Assembly (NCBI GenBank): GCA_019192455.1
Contig: JAHCML010000005.1
Location: forward strand, 32,324 to 48,185
Length of the DNA: 15,862 bases
Source of the DNA: Alphaproteobacteria bacterium SS10
GTDB taxonomy: Bacteria; Pseudomonadota; Alphaproteobacteria; TMED2
Direction: 5' to 3'
Shown here one piece after another: positions 2,891-11,981 of this stretch. Each line of letters starts with the position of its first letter. The stretch's first letter is position 1. A program made the position numbers and the translations under genes. Under the pieces are notes generated by a model. That model worked only from the letters and a program-made list of their open reading frames with translations. It made no database searches and was not told the DNA's origin.

Positions 2891-4042
2891 TTAAGCCTCA
2901 TCCCGCAGCTTGACCAGATCGTTCAGCAGGCCGTCGGTACCGTTGGTTACGGTCAGCCGTTCGACCTTACCGGCAATCGTTTCAAGCGCTTCCAGCTCTT
3001 TCAGCCGCAGCATCACTGGGTTTTCAGCGATGACCTTGGCCGTGTTCAGCAGCGACCGGGTGGCGTTTGTTTCCTCCCGCCGCTTGATCACGCTGGCCTC
3101 GGCCTGTTTCTCGGCTGCGACCACGGTGTTCAGGATGTCCCGCATCTCACCCGGCAGGACGACGTCCTTTAGGGTGATATCCGAGACCTCGACACCGATC
3201 TTGGCGAGATCGGCCCGGATCTTGTCGAGCGCCAGAGCATCGACCGTCGCCTTGTTTTCAAGGATCTGGTCGAGGGTCTTGGCACCCAGCTCTTTCCGAA
3301 ACACGGTTTGTAGCGACCGGTACAGGACGTCTTGGAAGTCCTTAACGTCCGTAACGGCAGCCACCGGGTCCGTGACTTGGTAGGTGGCGGTGACATTGAT
3401 CCGGATGGTCACCCGGTCCTTGGTCAGGAGTTCCTGACCAGTGACGTCGAGTGCCTGCACCCGGCCATCAATGACTTTCACCTCCACCGACCGGCCAGCC
3501 CGCCAGAAGCCGTAGGCCCCAGGCTTGAGCACCCGATCCAGGACACCGTCGACGAACACCAGACCGGTTTCACCATCGGCGATGGTGGCCAGGGTAGCGA
3601 GACCGGTGAGGTTGGTTTTCGTCAGTCGCCGCAGCAGCGGGCCCTTGATCACCATATCCTCCACCGCATCGGTGACGGTTGCCGTCCATGGGCCAGCTTC
3701 GGTCCAGAGGACCAGCCGCTGATCCGGGCCCAGCACTTGGAAGACCCGGCCATCCTGCTCGATGACGGCCACCTCTTGCGGGCCGGTTGTCACCAGCGTC
3801 AGCTGCTCGGCCGCGATATCAGGGAGCCTATCGAACAGGGCGGTCTCGTAGCTGGAGACTAGGACAGCCTCGGTCAGCTCGGCCCATTCCAGATCAAGCC
3901 GATGCCCGCGTGAAGGCAGCCAGTATTCACCTGGCATCAGGATGTCCCTCAGCTGACCCTTGTCGAGCCAGATGGCCCGCTCGGTCTCGTTCACGATCAC
4001 CCGGGTTCTACCGGTGATCCATTCTTTCAGTTTGATCATCAT
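2891..4042 (-). CDS. SPFH (band-7, stomatin/prohibitin-like) domain protein with an N-terminal extension of about 170 aa.
   Basis: The C-terminal 200 aa show the typical SPFH pattern: RVTIRINVTATYQVTDPVAA, FRKELGAKTLDQILENK, IGVEVSDITLKDVVLPGEMRDIL and AEKQAEASVIKRREETNA. ATGATG start at 4042 with an AGGAG Shine-Dalgarno sequence about 9 nt upstream. No TM helix is evident. Confidence 0.85.
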   Translation of the reverse strand: MMIKLKEWITGRTRVIVNETERAIWLDKGQLRDILMPGEYWLPSRGHRLDLEWAELTEAVLVSSYETALFDRLPDIAAEQLTLVTTGPQEVAVIEQDGRVFQVLGPDQRLVLWTEAGPWTATVTDAVEDMVIKGPLLRRLTKTNLTGLATLATIADGETGLVFVDGVLDRVLKPGAYGFWRAGRSVEVKVIDGRVQALDVTGQELLTKDRVTIRINVTATYQVTDPVAAVTDVKDFQDVLYRSLQTVFRKELGAKTLDQILENKATVDALALDKIRADLAKIGVEVSDITLKDVVLPGEMRDILNTVVAAEKQAEASVIKRREETNATRSLLNTAKVIAENPVMLRLKELEALETIAGKVERLTVTNGTDGLLNDLVKLRDEA

Positions 4043-4247
4043 CGTTCTTACTCCTGTTTCATCGCTTCGCGGCTTTGCTAACGCACGGGCGATACTCCTT
4101 TGGTTGTTTATCGAGGGCTGGTTGATGGGCCCGGGCCGCCGCCCTCGAATGAAGACAGCCCGGGTGTTCCGATTACGTGTTCGAACCTTGTGTTCGGAAA
4201 TTCTGGGAGACGCTCAAAGGCGCCCGGATGGCCGGGGGCAACCCCTG

Positions 4248-4300
4248 GTCACGGGTCGATGGGCGCGAGATCCGCGGTCGATGCCCCAGCGCCCGTGACC
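4248..4300. promoter_or_regulatory. Structured inverted repeat in the SPFH upstream region.
   Basis: Perfect 9-bp inverted repeat ggtcacggg (4248-4256) / cccgtgacc (4292-4300) encloses 35 nt that contain a direct 8-mer repeat, ggtcgatg, twice. It lies about 210-250 bp upstream of the SPFH start. Confidence 0.25.
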
Positions 4301-4528
4301 GATCTGCCAGGGCGATGCCTGGTCAATCAGGTGTTGGGGGTTGGGGCACGGAACCGGCGGCTCGGGCCGCAAAGACCGGCAGCTGGGGGAGGGTTGTGTT
4401 GCCCTGCTCGCTAGACCCCGACGCTGTTCACCAATGGTAAATTCCCAAGGGCAATCAACGCCGGCGCGTTGCAGGGCGCGGCAACATCCCGTCCATCCGG
4501 GCTAGTTTTGGAGACCGTCACAGGGTCG

Positions 4529-4600
4529 TGCAAAGCGTGGGAATCGAACCCACAACAATCAGATCCTGAGTCTGATGCTCTACCGTTGAGCTAGCTTGCT
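4529..4600 (-). tRNA. tRNA-like element or tRNA pseudogene: class-I cloverleaf with anticodon CAG and a defective acceptor stem.
   Basis: The minus strand reads AGCAAGC-TA-GCTC-AACGGTA-GAGC-A-TCAGA-CTCAGGA-TCTGA-TTGTT-GTGGG-TTCGATT-CCCAC-GCTTTGC-A (72 nt). D-arm, anticodon arm, 5-nt variable loop and T-arm are canonical. The acceptor pairs only if one A is added to the 5' strand (GCAAGC against GCTTTGC). CAG would decode Leu, but Leu tRNAs are class II with a long variable arm. Confidence 0.45.
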
Positions 4601-4975
4601 GGGACGATTGGATATCGTCGGCAAATCGACCAGACCGATGGCGCATCCAAACATGGGCCGTGGCAGTGCCAAGCCATGTGGGCGAGTAAATTTTGAAACT
4701 CTGACCATGTGTCACCTCCGGGTTATTCCGGTCGAGGGTCGCGGTGGATACGCGAAACACGAATCACTGGCAACAAGAAATTTTCGGGCCCTAGCTGTCT
4801 TGTTCTGGGTGTTGGGTCGGATTTGGCAATAAAACATCACCAGACATCGCATGTTCAGAATGAATATTTCGATCTATAAGTAATCATCGTATCATTCATT
4901 GCGTTTTTTGAATGCGTTGCAAAAAGCTATTGGCGGAAAGTGCCGGTGCTGGCAGCCTAATAGAACAGATCGCCG

Positions 4976-5003
4976 ATGGGCGGCGATCTTTGTTCAACTC
5001 GAA
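4976..5003 (+). terminator. Orphan intrinsic-terminator-like hairpin.
   Basis: agatcgccg-atggg-cggcgatct (9-bp perfect stem, 5-nt loop) followed by tttgtt. There is no upstream plus-strand CDS. Confidence 0.35.
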
Positions 5004-5564
5004 CGCAACCGATTGTTAGAACCACTAGGGAGAGCTCGATGCATAGTTATGTATCCATTCACATGTGCTCCACCGGCTTTGGTTCTGAGCTTGTCTTAAC
5101 CGACCGTCCGAATAAGGGACGCCTCCGTTAACACCCGCTCGGTCCAACCGGAAACGCTTACCAACCTTCCGGGTTTGGACGATTAAACGACGATTGGTTT
5201 GCCCCAGTTACACTTGCTGGGACCCAATTCCGCAAAATTGATCAGGATGTCTGGCTTAGGTCGTATTGCGACCTTGCTTTGCTACCCCTCACGCTACCGG
5301 TGTCTCGATATGCCGGTTACGGGACGCATAACCGCCATCAATCCATCCAATCCCGGCCATGGGTGCGCCGATCTTTAGTGATCTACAGCGCACATGGAAT
5401 GGGCCGAGCGTTTGTTAGAGCACGCGATCCACCACCAATGCGTCTGAGCGTCGGCGGTGATGATCGCCATCCATCAAGGGTATTGATTATTTGAAGAAGG
5501 GAGTACGGCCAGCTACGGACCCCACTAAGCAAAGGCTTAGATACAAGGTTTAGGGGTCGGCCGT

Positions 5565-7520
5565 ATGAAGATGATGGCTGAAGATTTTGATGATGATTTA
5601 GATGACCAGGGCGACCATGACCGTACCGGTCGTATGAGAAGCCGCAGTGAATCCGCGGCCCTCTACGCCAAGACATGGGCGTTCTCTTGGAACTACTGGC
5701 GCCAGCACCCCAAGCTGTTTTGGGGCGTGTTTGCCATGACCTGCCTCATGATTGCGGCGGATGTGGTGTCACCTTGGCTGGCCGGCTCGATCGTTGATGC
5801 GATCGTGGTTGATGCCAGTGCCAGCACTGCCCTCTGGGCGGTGGCCGGTTATGTGGGGATCATGGCGCTTTTCCATGGTTCCAAGCACATCACCGAGCAG
5901 CTTTGGATCCGGCTGGCGCCGATGTGTATGGAGCAAATCGTCAATGATGCGTTCCAACGCGTGCAGCGCTTCTCCTCGGACTGGCATGCGAACAGCTTTG
6001 CCGGTGCCGTGGTCCGCAAGATTACCCGCGGTAAGTGGGGCTTCGACCTTTATGGCGATACCCTGCTTTGGGGAGTGTTTCCCGCTGCGGTGATCTTGAT
6101 CGGCTGTACCCTCGCCCTTGCCATCCAGTGGTGGCAGGTGGGCCTCTTCGTTGGGGTGACCGGGGCGATCTATGTGGTGGTCAGCGTGATGATGGCCGTC
6201 CATTGGATCGGACCGGCAAACCAGCAGCAGGTGGCCCAGGACAGCAAGATCTCGGGCCTGTTGGCTGACGCCCTCGGCTGTAATGCCGTGGTGAAGGCCT
6301 TCGGTTCTGAGGCGCGGGAGGATCGCCGCATCGCTAAGGCGGCGCGCCTCTGGCACTTGCGGGCCCGGCGTAGCTTGGGTCGGGCCGTTGGCTCAGGCGG
6401 GTTCCAGTCCATCATGGTGACCATCATGATGGCGGGCGCGTTGAGCCTGGCAATCTGGCTCTGGCATGTGGGCCAGGCGACCAGCGGCGATATCGTCGTG
6501 ATCATGTCGACCATCCATGTGGTCAACGCCTATCTGCGGTTTGTTGGGCAGCATGCCGAGCATCTGCAGAAGTCGGTGAACGAGATGGAAGATGTGATCC
6601 GCTTCATGGACCAAGAGATCGCGGTCCGTGATGTGCCCGGGGCCCCACCTTTCCAGGCGGCTGTTAATGACAGTCAAGAGGGCGGTGGTGCTAAGGGCGG
6701 TGAGATCCGCTTTGAGGGTGTGACCTTCCGCTATGGCGGGCAGGTGGACCCGCTCTACCGTGATTTCGATCTGGCGATTAAGCCGGGCGAGCGGGTGGGG
6801 CTGGTTGGGCCTTCGGGCTCAGGTAAGTCGACCTTCGTGAAGCTGTTGCAGCGGCTTTACGATTTGAATGATGGGCGGATCGTGATCGACGGTCAGGATA
6901 TCGCACTCGTTCAACAGTCGAGCTTGCGCCGTGCGCTTGCCATGGTCCCGCAGGAGCCGGTGCTGTTCCACCGTTCGCTCGCCGAGAACATCGCCTATGG
7001 ACGGCCAGGTGCCGGCCGGGCGGCGATCGAGGCAGCGGCGCGGGAGGCCCTCGCCCATGACTTCATCATGCGCCTACCCCAGGGTTACGACACCCTGGTC
7101 GGTGAGCGCGGCGTGAAGCTCTCGGGTGGTGAGCGACAACGGGTGGCAATTGCCCGCGCGTTGTTGGCCGATGCACCGGTCCTGATCTTGGATGAGGCCA
7201 CGGCGGCGCTGGACAGCATCGCCGAGGCGGAAATCCAGCGGGCCCTGGGTCGCTTGATGGCCGGTCGGACCACGCTCGTCGTGGCCCACCGTCTGGCAAC
7301 GGTTCAGGGGATGGACCGGATCCTGGTGTTCAACCAGGGCCGGATCGTCGAGGAGGGCAGCCATGCGGCCCTGCTGCAAAGAGAGGGTGGCCACTACCGC
7401 GCCCTGTTTGAGGAGCAGGCCCTGGGCCTAATGGATGGCCTAGACGCCAGCCAGAAGGCAGCCCTACTAGCCGGCCAAGCGCCAGCCATTGAGGCACATC
7501 TAAAAAACGGCGCTGCGTAA
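5565..7520 (+). CDS. ABC transporter, fused permease/ATP-binding protein (type I exporter, MsbA-like).
   Basis: 651 aa. The N-terminal half has multiple hydrophobic TM segments. The nucleotide-binding domain has Walker A GPSGSGKST, ABC signature LSGGERQRVAIARAL, Walker B ILDEAT and H-loop VVAHRL. There is an acidic N-terminal extension (DFDDDLDDQGDHD). Confidence 0.9.
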   Translation: MKMMAEDFDDDLDDQGDHDRTGRMRSRSESAALYAKTWAFSWNYWRQHPKLFWGVFAMTCLMIAADVVSPWLAGSIVDAIVVDASASTALWAVAGYVGIMALFHGSKHITEQLWIRLAPMCMEQIVNDAFQRVQRFSSDWHANSFAGAVVRKITRGKWGFDLYGDTLLWGVFPAAVILIGCTLALAIQWWQVGLFVGVTGAIYVVVSVMMAVHWIGPANQQQVAQDSKISGLLADALGCNAVVKAFGSEAREDRRIAKAARLWHLRARRSLGRAVGSGGFQSIMVTIMMAGALSLAIWLWHVGQATSGDIVVIMSTIHVVNAYLRFVGQHAEHLQKSVNEMEDVIRFMDQEIAVRDVPGAPPFQAAVNDSQEGGGAKGGEIRFEGVTFRYGGQVDPLYRDFDLAIKPGERVGLVGPSGSGKSTFVKLLQRLYDLNDGRIVIDGQDIALVQQSSLRRALAMVPQEPVLFHRSLAENIAYGRPGAGRAAIEAAAREALAHDFIMRLPQGYDTLVGERGVKLSGGERQRVAIARALLADAPVLILDEATAALDSIAEAEIQRALGRLMAGRTTLVVAHRLATVQGMDRILVFNQGRIVEEGSHAALLQREGGHYRALFEEQALGLMDGLDASQKAALLAGQAPAIEAHLKNGAA

Positions 7521-7533
7521 TAGCGGTGTTAGG

Positions 7534-7565
7534 AAGCCCGGGGGTCAATGCTCCCGGGCTTTTCC
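7534..7565 (+). terminator. Rho-independent terminator of the ABC transporter gene.
   Basis: aagcccggg-ggtcaatgct-cccgggctt followed by tttcc, 14 nt after the stop codon. Confidence 0.65.
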
Positions 7566-7602
7566 TGCTTCACATCAGAATAAAGTATACGATAAGTATT
7601 TT

Positions 7603-7693
7603 TGGTGGGTCGCCAAGGAATCGAACCTCTCGCTGTAACCACCCCAAGATTTTACAGCACAGCGTTTACAGCGCCGCATGGGGAAAGCGACCC
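7603..7693 (-). tRNA. tRNA-derived element (91 nt, CCA encoded): Tyr-like anticodon stem-loop, no foldable D-arm, oversized variable hairpin. Probably a pseudo-tRNA or remnant.
   Basis: The minus strand reads GGGTCGC...GCGACCC-A-CCA, a perfect 7-bp acceptor, with T-arm AGAGG-TTCGATT-CCTTG. The internal hairpin CGGCG-CTGTAAA-CGCTG gives anticodon GTA. Only 7 nt separate acceptor and anticodon arm, so there is no D-arm. The motif GCTGTAAA is duplicated and forms a 7-bp variable hairpin. Confidence 0.45.
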
Positions 7694-7843
7694 AAGAGTA
7701 ACTAATTTTGATGTGTGAATTTGGCACGCAGTCTCACCGCAGCGGGATTTTCCCGCTGCGCTAAAAATTAACTGCAATAATAATATATAAGAGCGTGCAT
7801 AGCCCGATAAATGACCGTTTTTTAATCGTAAGTCAAATTTAAA

Positions 7844-7861
7844 TTCGATGTATTTACATCG
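7844..7861 (-). terminator. Putative terminator hairpin of the AT-rich orphan gene.
   Basis: tcgatgt-attt-acatcga (7-bp stem) lies 30 nt downstream of the stop at 7892 on the minus strand and is followed by an A/T-rich tract (auuuaaauuu). Confidence 0.35.
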
Positions 7862-7891
7862 AGCGGCCCTAGCGTCGGTTGGCCAATGGCT

Positions 7892-8708
7892 TTATCGTTG
7901 CCGCATAAGCCAGTTCCTAACTTCCCGCATAGACTCGTTGAACTCGCGAGGGTGCCAAGGAAGCTCTAGAGATTCTTCAATTGGTCGTGCACACTCAAGC
8001 ATTCTGATGCCATCCCATCTTTTGAGCACGTAGATAGCCAGATCCTCGCTGCTCATTTTGCCGATACTACTCTTTAGATGAGAGAGCATTTCGCTCGGCA
8101 TTGATTTGACGATTTTTTTGGCAAATTTGCTTATTTCTTTTTGGGTTTTATTTTCTATATTTTCTATTTCTTGTCTTTTCCATAATGAATTTATGAACAT
8201 ATAGGCTGATATTTTGTTTTTACATTTGTACATGTCCCCTTTTTTATGTACAAAATCATTTATTTTGAATGATTCCATCAATTTTCGATATAAATTATTA
8301 TTGGGTGTAAAGTATTCTATGCTGCTACTCACCCAGCCAAATTGGTAGGAATTTTCCAGTATTATATTAATAGACCTATCAATATCTTGTTCTGATAAAT
8401 TTGGCATTGAAATTATCAGCTCATGTATAAGATCTGATTCAATGATTTGTTCGGATATTCCTTTTTCAAAATCACTTTCTATTATGTTGTATTCTACTAG
8501 AAGGTAATATGCGCGTTCGCCGCTCGACACATATCCCGTTTCAATTTGGTATGCTTTGCGATTGTCGCACCACCATCTTGGAAGGCTGTCGGCTAAGAAA
8601 CCCAGTATTGTGCTTAGGAGTAAGATCTGATCATCAGTTGCTTTCTCTGAAATCATCGACGAATCCTCAATCACGTAGTTGTTCTCAGTGAGGTTTTCGG
8701 TGGCCATT
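7892..8708 (-). CDS. Orphan hypothetical protein encoded in an AT-rich (foreign) islet.
   Basis: About 272-aa ORF at roughly 30% GC, against about 60% in the flanks. The likely start is ATG at 8708 (MATENLTENNYVIEDSS), with GGGAGGGAG about 15 nt upstream. The ORF track's 359-aa version extends the frame into unrelated GC-rich DNA. The protein is I/N/K/E/S-rich with no recognisable motif. Confidence 0.6.
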
Positions 8709-8765
8709 GATCCCGCGCCTATCTCCCTCCCATGAGAGAGAGTACGGTAAAAAGCCGCCATCGAC

Positions 8766-8860
8766 CGACCAATAAATGCAGGTCTATTACGATGGGTCTT
8801 GTCCCTTACGTCGTAAGGAGTTCGCCTGGTATGGGCGCCGGGAGATTGAGGCGCCAATCT
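8766..8860 (+). pseudogene. Duplicated 5' fragment of the DUF393/DCC thiol-disulfide oxidoreductase gene.
   Basis: About 90% nucleotide identity over about 85-95 bp with 9654-9740. It encodes MQVYYDGSCPLRRKEFAWYGRREIEA, against MQVYYDGSCPLCRKEIAWYERRGIEA in the intact gene. The second Cys of CxxC is lost and similarity ends after about 28 codons. Confidence 0.6.
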
Positions 8861-8947
8861 GCCCGGTCCTAATTGTTTTCCCGCTTTCACTGGTTGAGCG
8901 TAAACGCGACGGATACCCGAAACACTATGGTTACAAGGATCAGCGCC

Positions 8948-9574
8948 ATGGCCACCGGATATCCCTTGCAAGATGATGAGCTAACCCAGGCTGACTTCGC
9001 CATCGCCTTGAGTGCGATGCCGACCCATAAGAGCCATTGGAGTGCGACGGATGAACGGCGGGCGCTGTATCTCGATCTGGCTCGAATGTCCGAGGGGCTG
9101 ACCTTCATCGATGAGGCGCGTGGTTTTCGCTTCCCCTGCGTCCGGGCCAGCTTCGGATATCTTGAAGACATCATGGCCGCGATCCCGCAGGCCGCCGTTC
9201 AGGCCGGTGCCATCTCCAATGAGATGGGCATATTTCAGGGTCGTCATGATTCAATCGTCGAAGATCAGAAGGGTGGCTATGCCGCTGGCGCTCAAGCGCC
9301 CTCCATCCGCGCTGCCCTGCTCTATGACGTGAAGAAGGATGAGGTGGTTGGCCTATCCGGTGCCGGTCGGGTTGCGCTGGCGATGCTAGACGCGGAATTC
9401 TCCGGACAGTTCTCCCCGCAGAATTTGCGCGAGCGAGGCCTCGACTATTTCAATAAGCAGTTGGAGGCAGCCGGGTTCGACCCCATGACCATGCCAGCGC
9501 CCAAGGCTGACCGGCAGGGGGCGGCACCCAAGCCAGATGCACCCGACGGCACCGGTCGGCCCATGCGGCCCTAG
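8948..9574 (+). CDS. Hypothetical protein.
   Basis: GC-rich ORF. ATG at 8948 with AAGGAT 8 nt upstream. Alternative starts at 8927 or TTG 8873. No recognisable motif; the C-terminus is Pro/Ala-rich. Confidence 0.5.
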   Translation: MATGYPLQDDELTQADFAIALSAMPTHKSHWSATDERRALYLDLARMSEGLTFIDEARGFRFPCVRASFGYLEDIMAAIPQAAVQAGAISNEMGIFQGRHDSIVEDQKGGYAAGAQAPSIRAALLYDVKKDEVVGLSGAGRVALAMLDAEFSGQFSPQNLRERGLDYFNKQLEAAGFDPMTMPAPKADRQGAAPKPDAPDGTGRPMRP

Positions 9575-9623
9575 GTCAACGCGACCCCCTCGTCTTCGGC
9601 TTATTCGCCCCTATCTTGGTGGC

Positions 9624-9998
9624 ATGAGCAAACCAGCCGACCAACAGCAACAAATGCAGGTCTATTACGACGGGTCTTGCCCCCTATGTCGTAAGGAGAT
9701 CGCCTGGTATGAGCGCCGGGGGATTGAGGCCGCCATGTGTGATGTGAGTGAGGCTGCTAATGTACCCGGCGATCTGACGCCCGAGGCCGCCATGGCGCGG
9801 TTTCATGTGCGCGATACCGATGGTCGGCTGCTCTCCGGCGCTGAGGCGTTTGTCGCCACCTGGCGGGTAACGCCGGGGCTGAAATGGCTGGCCGTCCTGT
9901 GCCGGCCTAGGCCGGTTATCTGGGTACTGGAGCGGCTGTATCGCCTCTTCCTCCATATCCGCCCGCAGATCCAAAAATTTGCACGATCCCTAACCTGA
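9624..9998 (+). CDS. DUF393 / DCC-family thiol-disulfide oxidoreductase (YuxK-like).
   Basis: N-terminal MQVYYDGSCPLCRKEIAWYERRG with a CxxC motif, diagnostic of the family. About 124 aa from ATG 9624, which is the family size. The ORF-track start at 9537 is probably too far upstream. Confidence 0.75.
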   Translation: MSKPADQQQQMQVYYDGSCPLCRKEIAWYERRGIEAAMCDVSEAANVPGDLTPEAAMARFHVRDTDGRLLSGAEAFVATWRVTPGLKWLAVLCRPRPVIWVLERLYRLFLHIRPQIQKFARSLT

Positions 9999-10145
9999 TC
10001 CACCAATCTGTTTCCACCCGGCCCCATGGGCACCGCATTCACAATGCTGCTACAGCGTTGGTTCCCAACGCGAACGCGCTAGCACCCGGTCAGTCTCGGG
10101 ATTAGGGTGGTGGCAATCTGTTCTCGCAAAAATGAAGACACTGCC

Positions 10146-10841
10146 ATGACCATCAAACTCTACGACCTGGCCGGTGAAGATTTGGAGATGCGGTTTAGCC
10201 CTTTTTGTTGGCGGACCAAGCTGGCGCTCGCCCATAAGGGGCTGGCATTCGAGACCATCCCCTGGCGCTTCCATGAAAAGGAGGCGATTGCCGAGAGTGG
10301 CCAGCCCAAGGTTCCGGTGATCGTTGATGGCGATAAGTGGATCCATGATAGCTGGGCCATCGCTGAGTATCTGGATGAGGCGTATCCAGATTGCCCGATG
10401 CTGTTCGCGGGCCCAGAGACGAAGGCCCATATCCGTTTTCTCGATGCCTGGATTGGCAAGGTGCTGTTCCCGGCGATTGCCAAGTCGGTGATGGTGCCGC
10501 TGCAGGATGTGATTGCTGAGGAGAACCGCGCCTATTTCCGGGAAACCCGGGAGAAGGTGTTCGGCATGACCTTGGAGCAGCTAGGTGAATTGGCGCCATC
10601 GGCGGAGGAGTTCTACGCCATGCTCTCACCGCTCCGCTCGGTCCTTGCCAAGCAACCGTTTCTGGCCGGTGATGCGCCAGATTATGGGGACTACCTGCTG
10701 TTCGGCCCGTTCCAATGGGCGCGCTGTTCCTCACCAGATGAGCTGCTGGCCGCCGATGATCCGGTTGCCCAATGGCGTGGTCGTGTTCTGGACCTCTATG
10801 ACGGTTTAGGCCGCAACGCCCCCGCCCGTTGTGCCGCTTGA
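10146..10841 (+). CDS. Glutathione S-transferase family protein.
   Basis: Thioredoxin-like N-terminal domain (TIKLYDLAG..SPFCWRTKLALAHKGLAFE..VPVIVDG) plus a helical C-terminal domain. 231 aa from ATG 10146. Confidence 0.75.
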   Translation: MTIKLYDLAGEDLEMRFSPFCWRTKLALAHKGLAFETIPWRFHEKEAIAESGQPKVPVIVDGDKWIHDSWAIAEYLDEAYPDCPMLFAGPETKAHIRFLDAWIGKVLFPAIAKSVMVPLQDVIAEENRAYFRETREKVFGMTLEQLGELAPSAEEFYAMLSPLRSVLAKQPFLAGDAPDYGDYLLFGPFQWARCSSPDELLAADDPVAQWRGRVLDLYDGLGRNAPARCAA

Positions 10842-10853
10842 TCGGGTTTGGCC

Positions 10854-11981
10854 ATGAGTGACGAAACCAAGGCTGGTTCTGCTAAAGGTGATGTTGCGGC
10901 AATAATCCGCGCGGCGTTCCGCGAGGGTTGGATGGCCCGGCATCAGCTTCGCGAGCCGGATGAGAACGATGTGGAGAATGACTGGATCATCTCTGAGGCG
11001 CGCAAGGCGGGAACCAGTGAATTCAAGGCGGTGACGCCAGAGTTAGTCCGCGACTGCTACCGCGCCCTGCTAAAGCGTGAGCCAGAGAACGATGATGTCG
11101 TTGCGGCCAGGGTTGCGGGGACGTCGAGCGTCTCTGATTTGCTCGAATCCTTCCGTCGATCACCAGAGCTGCTGCACCGGGCCTATATTGAGTATCTGCG
11201 GCGGCACAGCCCAGCGCTCAAGCCAAAGCCCCGGTTCGATCTCGATATAGCGCCGGACCAATTCAACCGATTGTTTGAAAGAGTAGTCACCCAATGGAGT
11301 GACCTTGGTCAGGCCGAGCCCTATTGGTCCGTGCTGACAGATGAGAAGTACAAAAGCGATGCGATTGATGAGGAGGTGCGGCAACGCTTCTACGACACTG
11401 GGAAGGATCTAGAACGGGAATTGAGACAGCTCCACGCCCGCAATGACGTGGCTTTTCAGGGTGGTGTCTGCTTGGAGCTCGGCGCGGGTGTCGGACGGTT
11501 AACCACCACATTGGCAAAGATGTTTGATCGGGTTATTGCGGTCGACATCTCACCGGGGAACCTAGAGATATGCAGAAAACATCTAGAGAAAAATAATATA
11601 GATAATGTCGATTTCAAAATTATATCCAACCCAGAACAGATTGGTGAATTAGAAAATTTTGATTATTTTTATTCGTTAATGGTGCTGCAGCATAATCCGC
11701 CGCCAATTCAAGAGTATATACTGGATATAATATTTAGAAATCTGAATGAAGGTGGGTTTGTTAATTTTCAACTGCCAACCAGTACGCCAGAATACCAGTT
11801 TGATATTGAGGCTTATTTGAGCTCATCACGCCAGGTTATGGATATGCATGATTTACCCATGAGTCGCGTATTCAGGCTTTTCCAGCGTCATGAAATCTTA
11901 CCGATAGATGTGATTATGGATAGCCACACGGGCACGTTTGGATCTCATAGCTTCTTCGGCCAAAAGCGGTCGGGGTCTTGA
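10854..11981 (+). CDS. Class I SAM-dependent methyltransferase with an N-terminal domain of about 200 aa. Compositional mosaic.
   Basis: Motif I LELGAGVGRLT, post-I acidic VIAVDIS, DYFYSLMVLQH and LNEGGFVNFQLP. It starts 13 nt after the GST stop. GC drops from about 60% to about 35% at about 11560 and recovers at about 11920, all within one intact frame. Confidence 0.75.
   Translation: MSDETKAGSAKGDVAAIIRAAFREGWMARHQLREPDENDVENDWIISEARKAGTSEFKAVTPELVRDCYRALLKREPENDDVVAARVAGTSSVSDLLESFRRSPELLHRAYIEYLRRHSPALKPKPRFDLDIAPDQFNRLFERVVTQWSDLGQAEPYWSVLTDEKYKSDAIDEEVRQRFYDTGKDLERELRQLHARNDVAFQGGVCLELGAGVGRLTTTLAKMFDRVIAVDISPGNLEICRKHLEKNNIDNVDFKIISNPEQIGELENFDYFYSLMVLQHNPPPIQEYILDIIFRNLNEGGFVNFQLPTSTPEYQFDIEAYLSSSRQVMDMHDLPMSRVFRLFQRHEILPIDVIMDSHTGTFGSHSFFGQKRSGS

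Follow-up and report, generated by a model that had tools for sequence, protein, structure and literature searches.

Partial duplication of a DCC gene start most likely reflects ordinary recombination in a highly variable chromosomal region

Introduction

Why does the beginning of a gene for a DCC1-like thiol-disulfide oxidoreductase occur twice, in the same orientation, on the two sides of a hypothetical gene? We studied this question in a window of 15,862 nucleotides, the whole stretch of DNA that was analysed (Alphaproteobacteria bacterium SS10, contig JAHCML010000005.1), which derives from a metagenome-assembled genome (MAG) with locus tags KI792_.... Read from the left, the window encodes a DUF6782 protein (611-1717), a 322-aa hypothetical protein (1851-2819), a Band 7 protein (2891-4042, minus strand), an odd tRNA (4528-4599, minus strand), an ABC transporter (5565-7520) and a tRNA-like element (7603-7693, minus strand). 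These are followed by the open reading frame (ORF) of an AT-rich islet, the upstream copy of the repeat (copy A), the hypothetical gene (hyp) and the intact DCC gene, whose start forms the second copy (copy B). Downstream of DCC lie, in order, GST, methyltransferase, ABM, DUF6434, esterase, BKACE and aminotransferase genes. We argue below that the repeat most probably records ordinary recombination in a highly variable region, and does not represent a mobile element or a new system.

Results

The repeated segment and its two copies

The intact DCC gene (9624-9998, plus strand) matches PF04134 with 73.5 bits, above the gathering cut-off of 27.8, and carries the CxxC motif as CPLC. NCBI places its start at 9654 (MQVYY), and there is an in-frame upstream ATG at 9624, in a frame that is conserved in relatives. 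A sequence-only reading of the window had reported that 8754-8850 and 9636-9735 are about 90% identical, and had suggested a pairwise alignment of the two copies. The repeat finder returned an ungapped repeat of 92 nt with 87% identity (8770-8861 and 9648-9739), and a gapped local alignment paired 8762-8857 with 9638-9736. When copy A was compared by BLAST with the rest of the window, the one significant match was copy B (87.8% over 98 nt, E 1.5e-29), a similarity far above chance, and the next-best match had an E value of 0.07. The agreement of the three alignments indicates that the coordinates reported earlier were correct to within a few bases, at a slightly lower identity of 87%.

A profile built from copy B and two relatives extended the repeat further, as nhmmer aligned copy A across 8714-8855 (E 1.4e-32). 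The repeated segment thus also takes in about 18 nt upstream of the gene and an N-terminal leader of 10-15 codons, and the extended pair comprises 8714-8857 (copy A) and 9606-9736 (copy B, plus strand; repeat finder, alignment and nhmmer), about 145 nt. The same scan of the window detected no DCC 5′ copies beyond these two. Both copies read in the DCC frame (MQVYYDGSCPLRRKEFAWYGRREIEAP in copy A and MQVYYDGSCPLCRKEIAWYERRGIEAA in copy B), and the longest perfect run that they have in common is 19 nt. The intact DCC gene follows copy A at a distance of 0.9 kb, and a single orphan gene, hyp, separates the two.

Copy A (plus strand), delimited by the repeat finder, alignment, nhmmer and BLAST, is a pseudogenised DCC/DUF393 5′ fragment that comprises the 18 or so upstream nucleotides, an N-terminal leader in an advanced state of decay, and codons 1-27 (numbered from MQVYY). 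It contains a TAA stop codon at 8773-8775, where copy B and all relatives have CAA, and a frameshift caused by a 1-nt deletion after 8851. As had been read from the sequence, the fragment is truncated and has lost the second cysteine of the CxxC motif: TGT is replaced by CGT at 8809-8811, turning Cys into Arg (CPLR), and the DCC similarity breaks off sharply at about 8857, at codon 27-28. The CPLR motif marks copy A as a dead fragment, functionally not a member of the DCC family. A 66-aa ORF (8776-8976) that traverses it matches no family, PF04134 included. For annotation purposes 8714-8857 should be recorded as a pseudogene fragment and not as a gene, though the 66-aa ORF could be called.

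The islet and the bracketed gene

Copy A adjoins the AT-rich islet, again in line with the sequence-only reading. The islet extends over about 7550-8700 with a GC content of 0.27-0.45. By the ORF list and composition it encodes one ORF of 271 aa (7892-8707, minus strand, GC 0.38), which is divergent from copy A, starts at 8707, 7 nt away from the fragment's left edge, and has a terminator-like hairpin on its 3′ side (7862-7845). Copy A is contained in the 240-nt divergent intergenic region between this ORF and hyp. Homologues of the islet protein were found in the same strain only, and the protein matched no family in Pfam, PHROGs, PADLOC or NCBIfam. The islet itself lies outside the two repeats, and within the window we found no repeats that link its left border to the DCC copies.

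Between the repeats lies a segment of about 750 nt (8858-9605, plus strand) that is unlike relatives and the remaining window. The stretches 8858-8947, 9575-9623 and 9974-10146 gave chance-level matches only when compared with relatives and the remaining window. The segment contains hyp (8948-9574, plus strand, 208 aa), which was evaluated by codon usage and homologue searches. Its GC content by codon position (0.67/0.48/0.68) is like that of host genes, and it shows a clear frame-specific codon-usage signal; together these indicate that hyp is a real gene. Among 5.8 billion clustered proteins it retrieved only itself, and among 1.8 billion representatives two remote homologues (31-34% identity, E 5e-8 and 3e-7). 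One of them sits just 3′ of an rRNA operon in a genome of 40% GC with no DCC gene nearby, neither adjoins a DCC gene, and a general linkage between hyp and DCC was not seen among the loci compared. No match to hyp was obtained in Pfam, PHROGs, PADLOC or NCBIfam, and an AlphaFold model from the single sequence was uninformative (pLDDT 35). Judged by these searches, hyp belongs to a very rare family, with the two remote homologues as its other members.

Relatives and variability of the locus

Our searches found three related contigs only, designated here L002, L003 and L158. In L002 and L003, whose DCC proteins are 92% identical in amino-acid sequence to that of the window, the gene order is BMT5-like, 2OG-Fe(II) oxygenase (2OG), DCC, DUF6782, four genes, GST, ABM, DUF4419, DUF6434, esterase, DehI and BKACE, where the four genes encode a 158-aa hypothetical protein (minus strand), Elm1, and 200-aa and 182-aa hypothetical proteins. 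The right side of the window is thus syntenic with these contigs, with several insertions and deletions. Nucleotide homology with the window begins about 13-20 nt 5′ of DCC, ends near its stop codon and resumes 9 nt before GST, and the spacing between DCC and GST is 4.4 kb in L002 versus 0.15 kb in the window. The adjacency of 2OG and DCC is common to L002, L003 and L158 and is absent in the window. The identity between L158 and L002 fluctuates, from 0 to 12 mismatches per 50 nt. Across these contigs, the DCC locus presents itself as a mosaic, highly variable chromosomal region.

The other scans returned no further representative of the locus. A scan of genome contigs with DCC gave no same-locus relatives; one with a GST alignment gave relatives of at most 57% identity, none with DCC nearby; a scan of metagenome contigs with a DCC alignment likewise gave relatives of at most 57%, none with a second DCC fragment; and exact-protein look-ups of the ABC transporter and GST of the window returned the same contig or nothing. 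A presence/absence variant of the locus was thus not found by these scans. A second DCC copy or fragment nearby was seen in 0 of 86 more distant DCC loci. A possible donor haplotype, either hyp-DCC without copy A or the islet next to an intact DCC gene, was absent from all collections searched.

Allele comparison between the lineages revealed a near-invariant block of 107 nt at the DCC start (9648-9754, plus strand), in which we count positions from CAACAAATG (position 9648 of the window, 1525 of L158). Copy B and the full copy of L158 differ at 0 of 107 positions within the block and at 29 of 233 beyond it (Fisher p 1.2e-5), and copy B and L002 at 2 of 107 and 21 of 219, respectively (p 0.01); L158 and L002 likewise share a near-invariant start followed by a divergent remainder. 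Beyond the block DCC differs between lineages by about 10-12%, mostly at synonymous sites. RNA structure was not supported as the reason for the invariance of the block (z -1.07). The near-identity of the block across lineages makes it the best crossover substrate between diverged genomes, and it is the probable preferred site of homologous crossover. A 7-bp inverted repeat, TTACGAC...GTCGTAA, can be read directly from the sequence inside the block.

L158, a 1.9-kb metagenomic contig from another MAG, offers a possible second occurrence of the arrangement. It opens with a DCC 5′ fragment (nt 1-141), followed by higA and higB, both on the minus strand, then by 2OG and finally by an intact DCC gene; it would be a second genome with a truncated 5′ end, an insert and an intact gene, with another insert and another truncation point. 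The fragment is identical to the contig's own full copy at 131 of 140 positions; at positions 108-120 it encodes EAAN, the allele type of copy B, and the full copy encodes EATN, the L002 type. The contig may be chimeric, as it starts within the fragment and matches the full copy at each of its first 74 nt. Measured from CAACAAATG, truncation occurs after about 88 nt in the window and about 141 nt in L158, which argues against a fixed crossover point. A 12-nt motif, GAGGCCGCCATG, identified by sequence comparison, is present in DCC in two copies (9726-9737 and 9783-9794, plus strand); copy A loses similarity at the first and the L158 fragment at the second. These ends may reflect the use of microhomology, or coincidence. 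Two full DCC paralogues, which the earlier reading had named as the finding that would speak against it, are not present in these relatives: L002 and L003 have one DCC gene each, and L158 has one full copy and one fragment.

Affinities of the two copies

Within the block copy A is equally distant from every intact allele, matching at 79 of 89 positions and differing at 10 of 89. The leader upstream of the block gives another picture, since copy A matches L158 there at 43 of 54 positions (80%) versus 26 of 53 (49%) for copy B. The leader of copy B is also remote from those of the relatives (29/54 with L158, 27/41 with L002). These affinities indicate that copy A is no simple copy of B. In its leader, copy A looks like the 5′ end of a different, long-leader allele of the L158 type, and this match favours separate origins of A and B, possibly from a donor and a recipient haplotype, although the block shows no such preference and the collections searched contained no donor haplotype.

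Origin of the repeat

The repeat had been proposed to mark a rearrangement junction, and the alignments support this, as a truncated and a complete copy stand in direct orientation around unique DNA. Such a layout is the expected product of a single crossover with a molecule that carries part of a gene, and the locus has the features of a recombination scar: part of the target gene directly repeated around an insert, with one copy truncated and the other complete. The account to which we give moderate confidence sees in copy A the 5′ end of a DCC allele that was displaced and stranded when two haplotypes of this variable locus, with different genes upstream of DCC, recombined. The DCC 5′ region, near-invariant between lineages, would have been the homologous anchor for one exchange, and the other join, at 8857/8858, would have been illegitimate. 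The inserted unit would consist of the unique segment (8858-9605) and one copy of the repeat. Two equivalent routes could lead there, either a Campbell-type single crossover of a circularised fragment bearing hyp and the DCC 5′ end, or a linear fragment joined by one-sided homologous recombination and an illegitimate join. Both would yield a truncated DCC 5′ end (A), about 750 nt with hyp, and a complete DCC gene (B). After the event only copy B would have been needed, so that copy A could decay through its stop codon, cysteine loss and frameshift. We infer the mechanism and the order of events from this one product. The newcomer may have been either hyp with the 5′ end of B or the islet with A; composition slightly favours the latter because hyp is host-like and the islet is not, although amelioration arguments are weak.

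Processes of this kind have been described in other bacteria. In E. coli conjugation, most such recombinants had duplications of 109-950 bp of part of lacZ, which arose by a single crossover of circularised molecules missing part of the homologous fragment (PMC3240628). As in Campbell-type insertion-duplication, the shared part of a gene is directly duplicated around the insert, and of the two copies one is truncated and the other complete (PMC3240628); the event studied here differs in being natural and old, with copies 87% identical, and in its short shared segment of about 145 nt. True homology-facilitated illegitimate recombination usually produces deletions, with 3-10 bp of microhomology at the join (PMC3240628), and a circular intermediate or an unusual join would thus be required to generate copy A. 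For T6SS, Rhs and CDI loci, one-sided homologous recombination has been put forward as the source of displaced gene ends (PMC5361080). Homology-facilitated illegitimate recombination, orphan Rhs/CDI 3′ ends and T6SS effector-immunity arrays share with our locus a conserved-gene anchor combined with an illegitimate join, and an old end that is displaced and decays; in the Rhs, CDI and T6SS systems the process recurs at one locus and relics accumulate (PMC5361080). Those systems differ in having a constant 5′ region and displaced 3′ ends with immunity genes, whereas here the 5′ end is displaced, and their toxin-immunity logic is not evident at the locus in the window.

The earlier reading had offered two origins for the repeat. 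Of its suggestion of a duplication, the duplicative insertion of a hyp-bearing segment holds as the best-fitting topology, and a simple segmental or tandem duplication does not, given the leader affinities and the fact that only about 145 nt are repeated. Its other suggestion, in which the islet integrated into the DCC 5′ region and repair followed, was not supported: the islet lies outside the repeats, its left border is unlinked to them and no recombinase is encoded in it.

Could the two copies have arisen within one genome? The starting point may have been an old tandem or segmental duplication, or a pair of paralogues in the order DCC1-hyp-DCC2, after which the upstream copy lost its 3′ two-thirds and decayed neutrally. 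Relative to L002, copies A and B do have two minor derived states in common (ATGAG instead of ATGAC where the leader begins, and an A at the third position of codon 11), and the 7 substitutions and 1 indel found in copy A alone over 84 nt fit neutral decay over roughly the time since the lineages separated. We nevertheless judge such an intragenomic origin unlikely. Neither a second hyp nor a DCC 3′ end was found near copy A, where the repeat amounts to just those 145 nt; the leader of A is of the L158 type, so that the leader of B would need to have been remodelled after the duplication; and none of the 86 other DCC loci has a nearby second copy. A tandem head-to-tail duplication was rejected, as the whole unit is not repeated and the 750 nt between the copies are unique.

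Direct repeats around foreign-looking DNA at the 5′ end of a gene also recall site-specific integration, in which the DCC 5′ block would be an attachment site, copies A and B would be attL and attR, and an element with a replacement 5′ end would have been reduced to a 0.75-kb remnant with hyp. SXT-type elements insert in prfC and restore it. With integrative elements at gene ends (attL/attR of phages and ICEs; SXT in prfC) our locus shares a partial gene-end repeat that brackets foreign DNA and leaves the target intact, and it differs from them in having no integrase, no identical core, an insert of 0.75 kb and variable truncation points. The 107-nt block is conserved between lineages in its nucleotide sequence, which could signal a site-specific process, the succession of fragment, insert and intact gene is seen again in L158, and the 7-bp inverted repeat lies within the block. 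We still consider this origin improbable. No integrase or recombinase is encoded between or beside the repeats, and no recombinase match was obtained for the ORFs 7892-8707 and 8948-9574 in Pfam, PHROGs, PADLOC or NCBIfam. The repeats are just 87% identical with a longest identical run of 19 nt, and the fragments of the window and L158 end at different distances from CAACAAATG. The sequence is absent from phage, plasmid and viral contigs: window 7521-9740 had no match in plasmids and phages, and the DCC 5′ block was not found in viral contigs. A second fragment was likewise lacking at the 86 other DCC loci. We likewise disfavour an integrase-mediated island or prophage, as there is no recombinase gene, no identical att core and no fixed crossover position. 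The tRNA-like element at 7603-7693 was discarded as the att partner of an island, since no repeat connects it with the DCC copies and it was not recognised as a tRNA or tmRNA. An insertion sequence was dismissed as well: no transposase domain or short target-site duplication was detected at the locus, neither 8858-9605 nor the islet is bounded by terminal inverted repeats, and the repeat consists of about 145 nt of gene sequence and not of a 2-14 bp duplication.

A more speculative and quite doubtful variant is that the 107-nt start of this DCC clade is a dedicated recombination site at which recombinase-less cassettes (hyp here, higBA in L158) are repeatedly inserted through a trans-acting factor, with a DCC 5′ fragment displaced on each occasion. 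If true, the DCC start would be an integron-like or att-like hot spot within a coding sequence.

It is very improbable that copy A is a retained functional element, such as a small upstream ORF, or a promoter or leader that serves hyp. Copy A does sit in the 240-nt divergent region where the promoters of hyp and the islet ORF must both lie, and the 66-aa ORF traverses it; against this, it has a stop codon, a frameshift and no second catalytic cysteine, it diverges by 11% in an otherwise invariant block, no promoter-like site was found, and neither the profile scan of the window nor the 86 DCC loci yielded a conserved counterpart.

An assembly artefact, namely a chimeric join of strain variants, is conceivable for a window that derives from a MAG and yet hardly credible, as the NCBI MAG is in agreement with two further assemblies (the Logan assembly of SRR14140256, identical to the window, and a 1166-bp contig from another sample, ENA ERZ23488063, 99.6% identical to window 7814-8980) and copies that are 12% apart are not expected to collapse or be mis-joined. 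The ERZ23488063 contig covers the islet, copy A and the start of hyp, and its match indicates that the junctions between them are real.

Implications of a recombination scar

Read as the stranded end of a displaced DCC allele, copy A places and dates recombination in a hypervariable segment of a poorly sampled alphaproteobacterial lineage, and it suggests that a short, highly conserved gene start can anchor swaps of neighbouring genes between diverged lineages. By itself the scar raises no new question. Two points are of modest interest, the possible second occurrence in L158 and the invariance of the 107-nt start. Should complete genomes bear out the recurrence in L158, the locus would serve as a small-scale natural example in which one-sided recombination accumulates displaced gene ends.

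Excision through the repeat, as had been suggested, was not supported; deletion between the copies is possible and unlikely to be efficient. A run of 19 nt is below the length generally required for efficient RecA-dependent exchange in E. coli, and the arrangement is unchanged in the second sample; on both grounds excision should be rare, and no instance of it was seen. If A and B crossed over 5′ of codon 12, the CxxC motif would be intact again, and a crossover 3′ of that codon would give a dead hybrid.

Conserved start and truncated copies of the DCC gene

The start of the DCC1-like/DUF393 gene (DCC, 9624-9998) is nearly invariant over 107 nt, counted from CAACAAATG (9648-9754 in the window). 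This stretch showed 0-2 differences among three lineages, represented by the window, L158 (a 1.9-kb contig of another metagenome-assembled genome; 1525-1631) and L002 (a related contig; 1239-1345), and over the remainder of the gene the lineages diverge by 10-12%, mostly at synonymous sites. We looked for an RNA fold in the 107-nt start and found none that was significant.

A 12-nt motif, GAGGCCGCCATG, occurs twice within DCC (9726-9737 and 9783-9794). Similarity to DCC is lost at the first motif in copy A, the decayed DCC 5′ fragment of the window (8714-8857), and at the second in the truncated DCC 5′ fragment of L158 (1-141). These end points could reflect microhomology at illegitimate joins, or a coincidence. 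In L158 the fragment is followed by a higBA toxin-antitoxin pair (161-764), a 2OG oxygenase gene and an intact DCC, and the truncated and full copies represent different allele types. As the contig begins within the DCC fragment, this arrangement of fragment, insert and intact gene may be the product of a chimeric assembly.

Copy A is itself flanked by a perfect 10-nt inverted repeat (8698-8707 and 8948-8957), about one of which is expected by chance in the region around it. The repeated sequence, ATGGCCACCG, encodes Met-Ala-Thr and forms the start of both the divergent ORF of the AT-rich islet and the hypothetical gene between copy A and DCC.

Islet ORF and methyltransferase gene

The islet ORF (7892-8707) is fragmented in L006 (221-1085), a contig from a second sample, where it yields a 189-aa call and matches in three frames, even though the two sequences are 99.6% identical at the nucleotide level. 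Indels, probably located in A/T runs, cause the breaks, and they represent either assembly errors or a genuine inactivation of this ORF in the population of the second sample.

Between the GST and ABM genes lies a methyltransferase gene (10848-11981) with a GC content of 0.50, compared with ~0.61 for its neighbours. The corresponding syntenic stretch of L002, and of L003, another related contig, lacks it, so the gene was probably acquired, as a further insertion in the variable region.

tRNA and tRNA-like elements

Between the terminator hairpin of the ABC transporter gene and the AT-rich islet we noted a 91-nt tRNA-like element on the minus strand (7603-7693). Its acceptor stem pairs perfectly over 7 bp (GGGTCGC/GCGACCC), and it has a T-arm (GGTTCGATTCC) and ACCA at its 3′ end. 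Neither ARAGORN at default settings nor Rfam (E ≤ 1) called it, and the sole call, 'tRNA-Ala cgc', came from ARAGORN with the threshold relaxed. The element could represent a degenerate tRNA or what is left of an island target. The 1.5-kb stretch at 4043-5564, devoid of convincing ORFs, holds a lone tRNA of only 72 nt on the minus strand, called as Leu(CAG) (4528-4599; Rfam, 59 bits), which lacks a long variable arm and has an imperfect acceptor stem, unusual for a bacterial tRNA-Leu.
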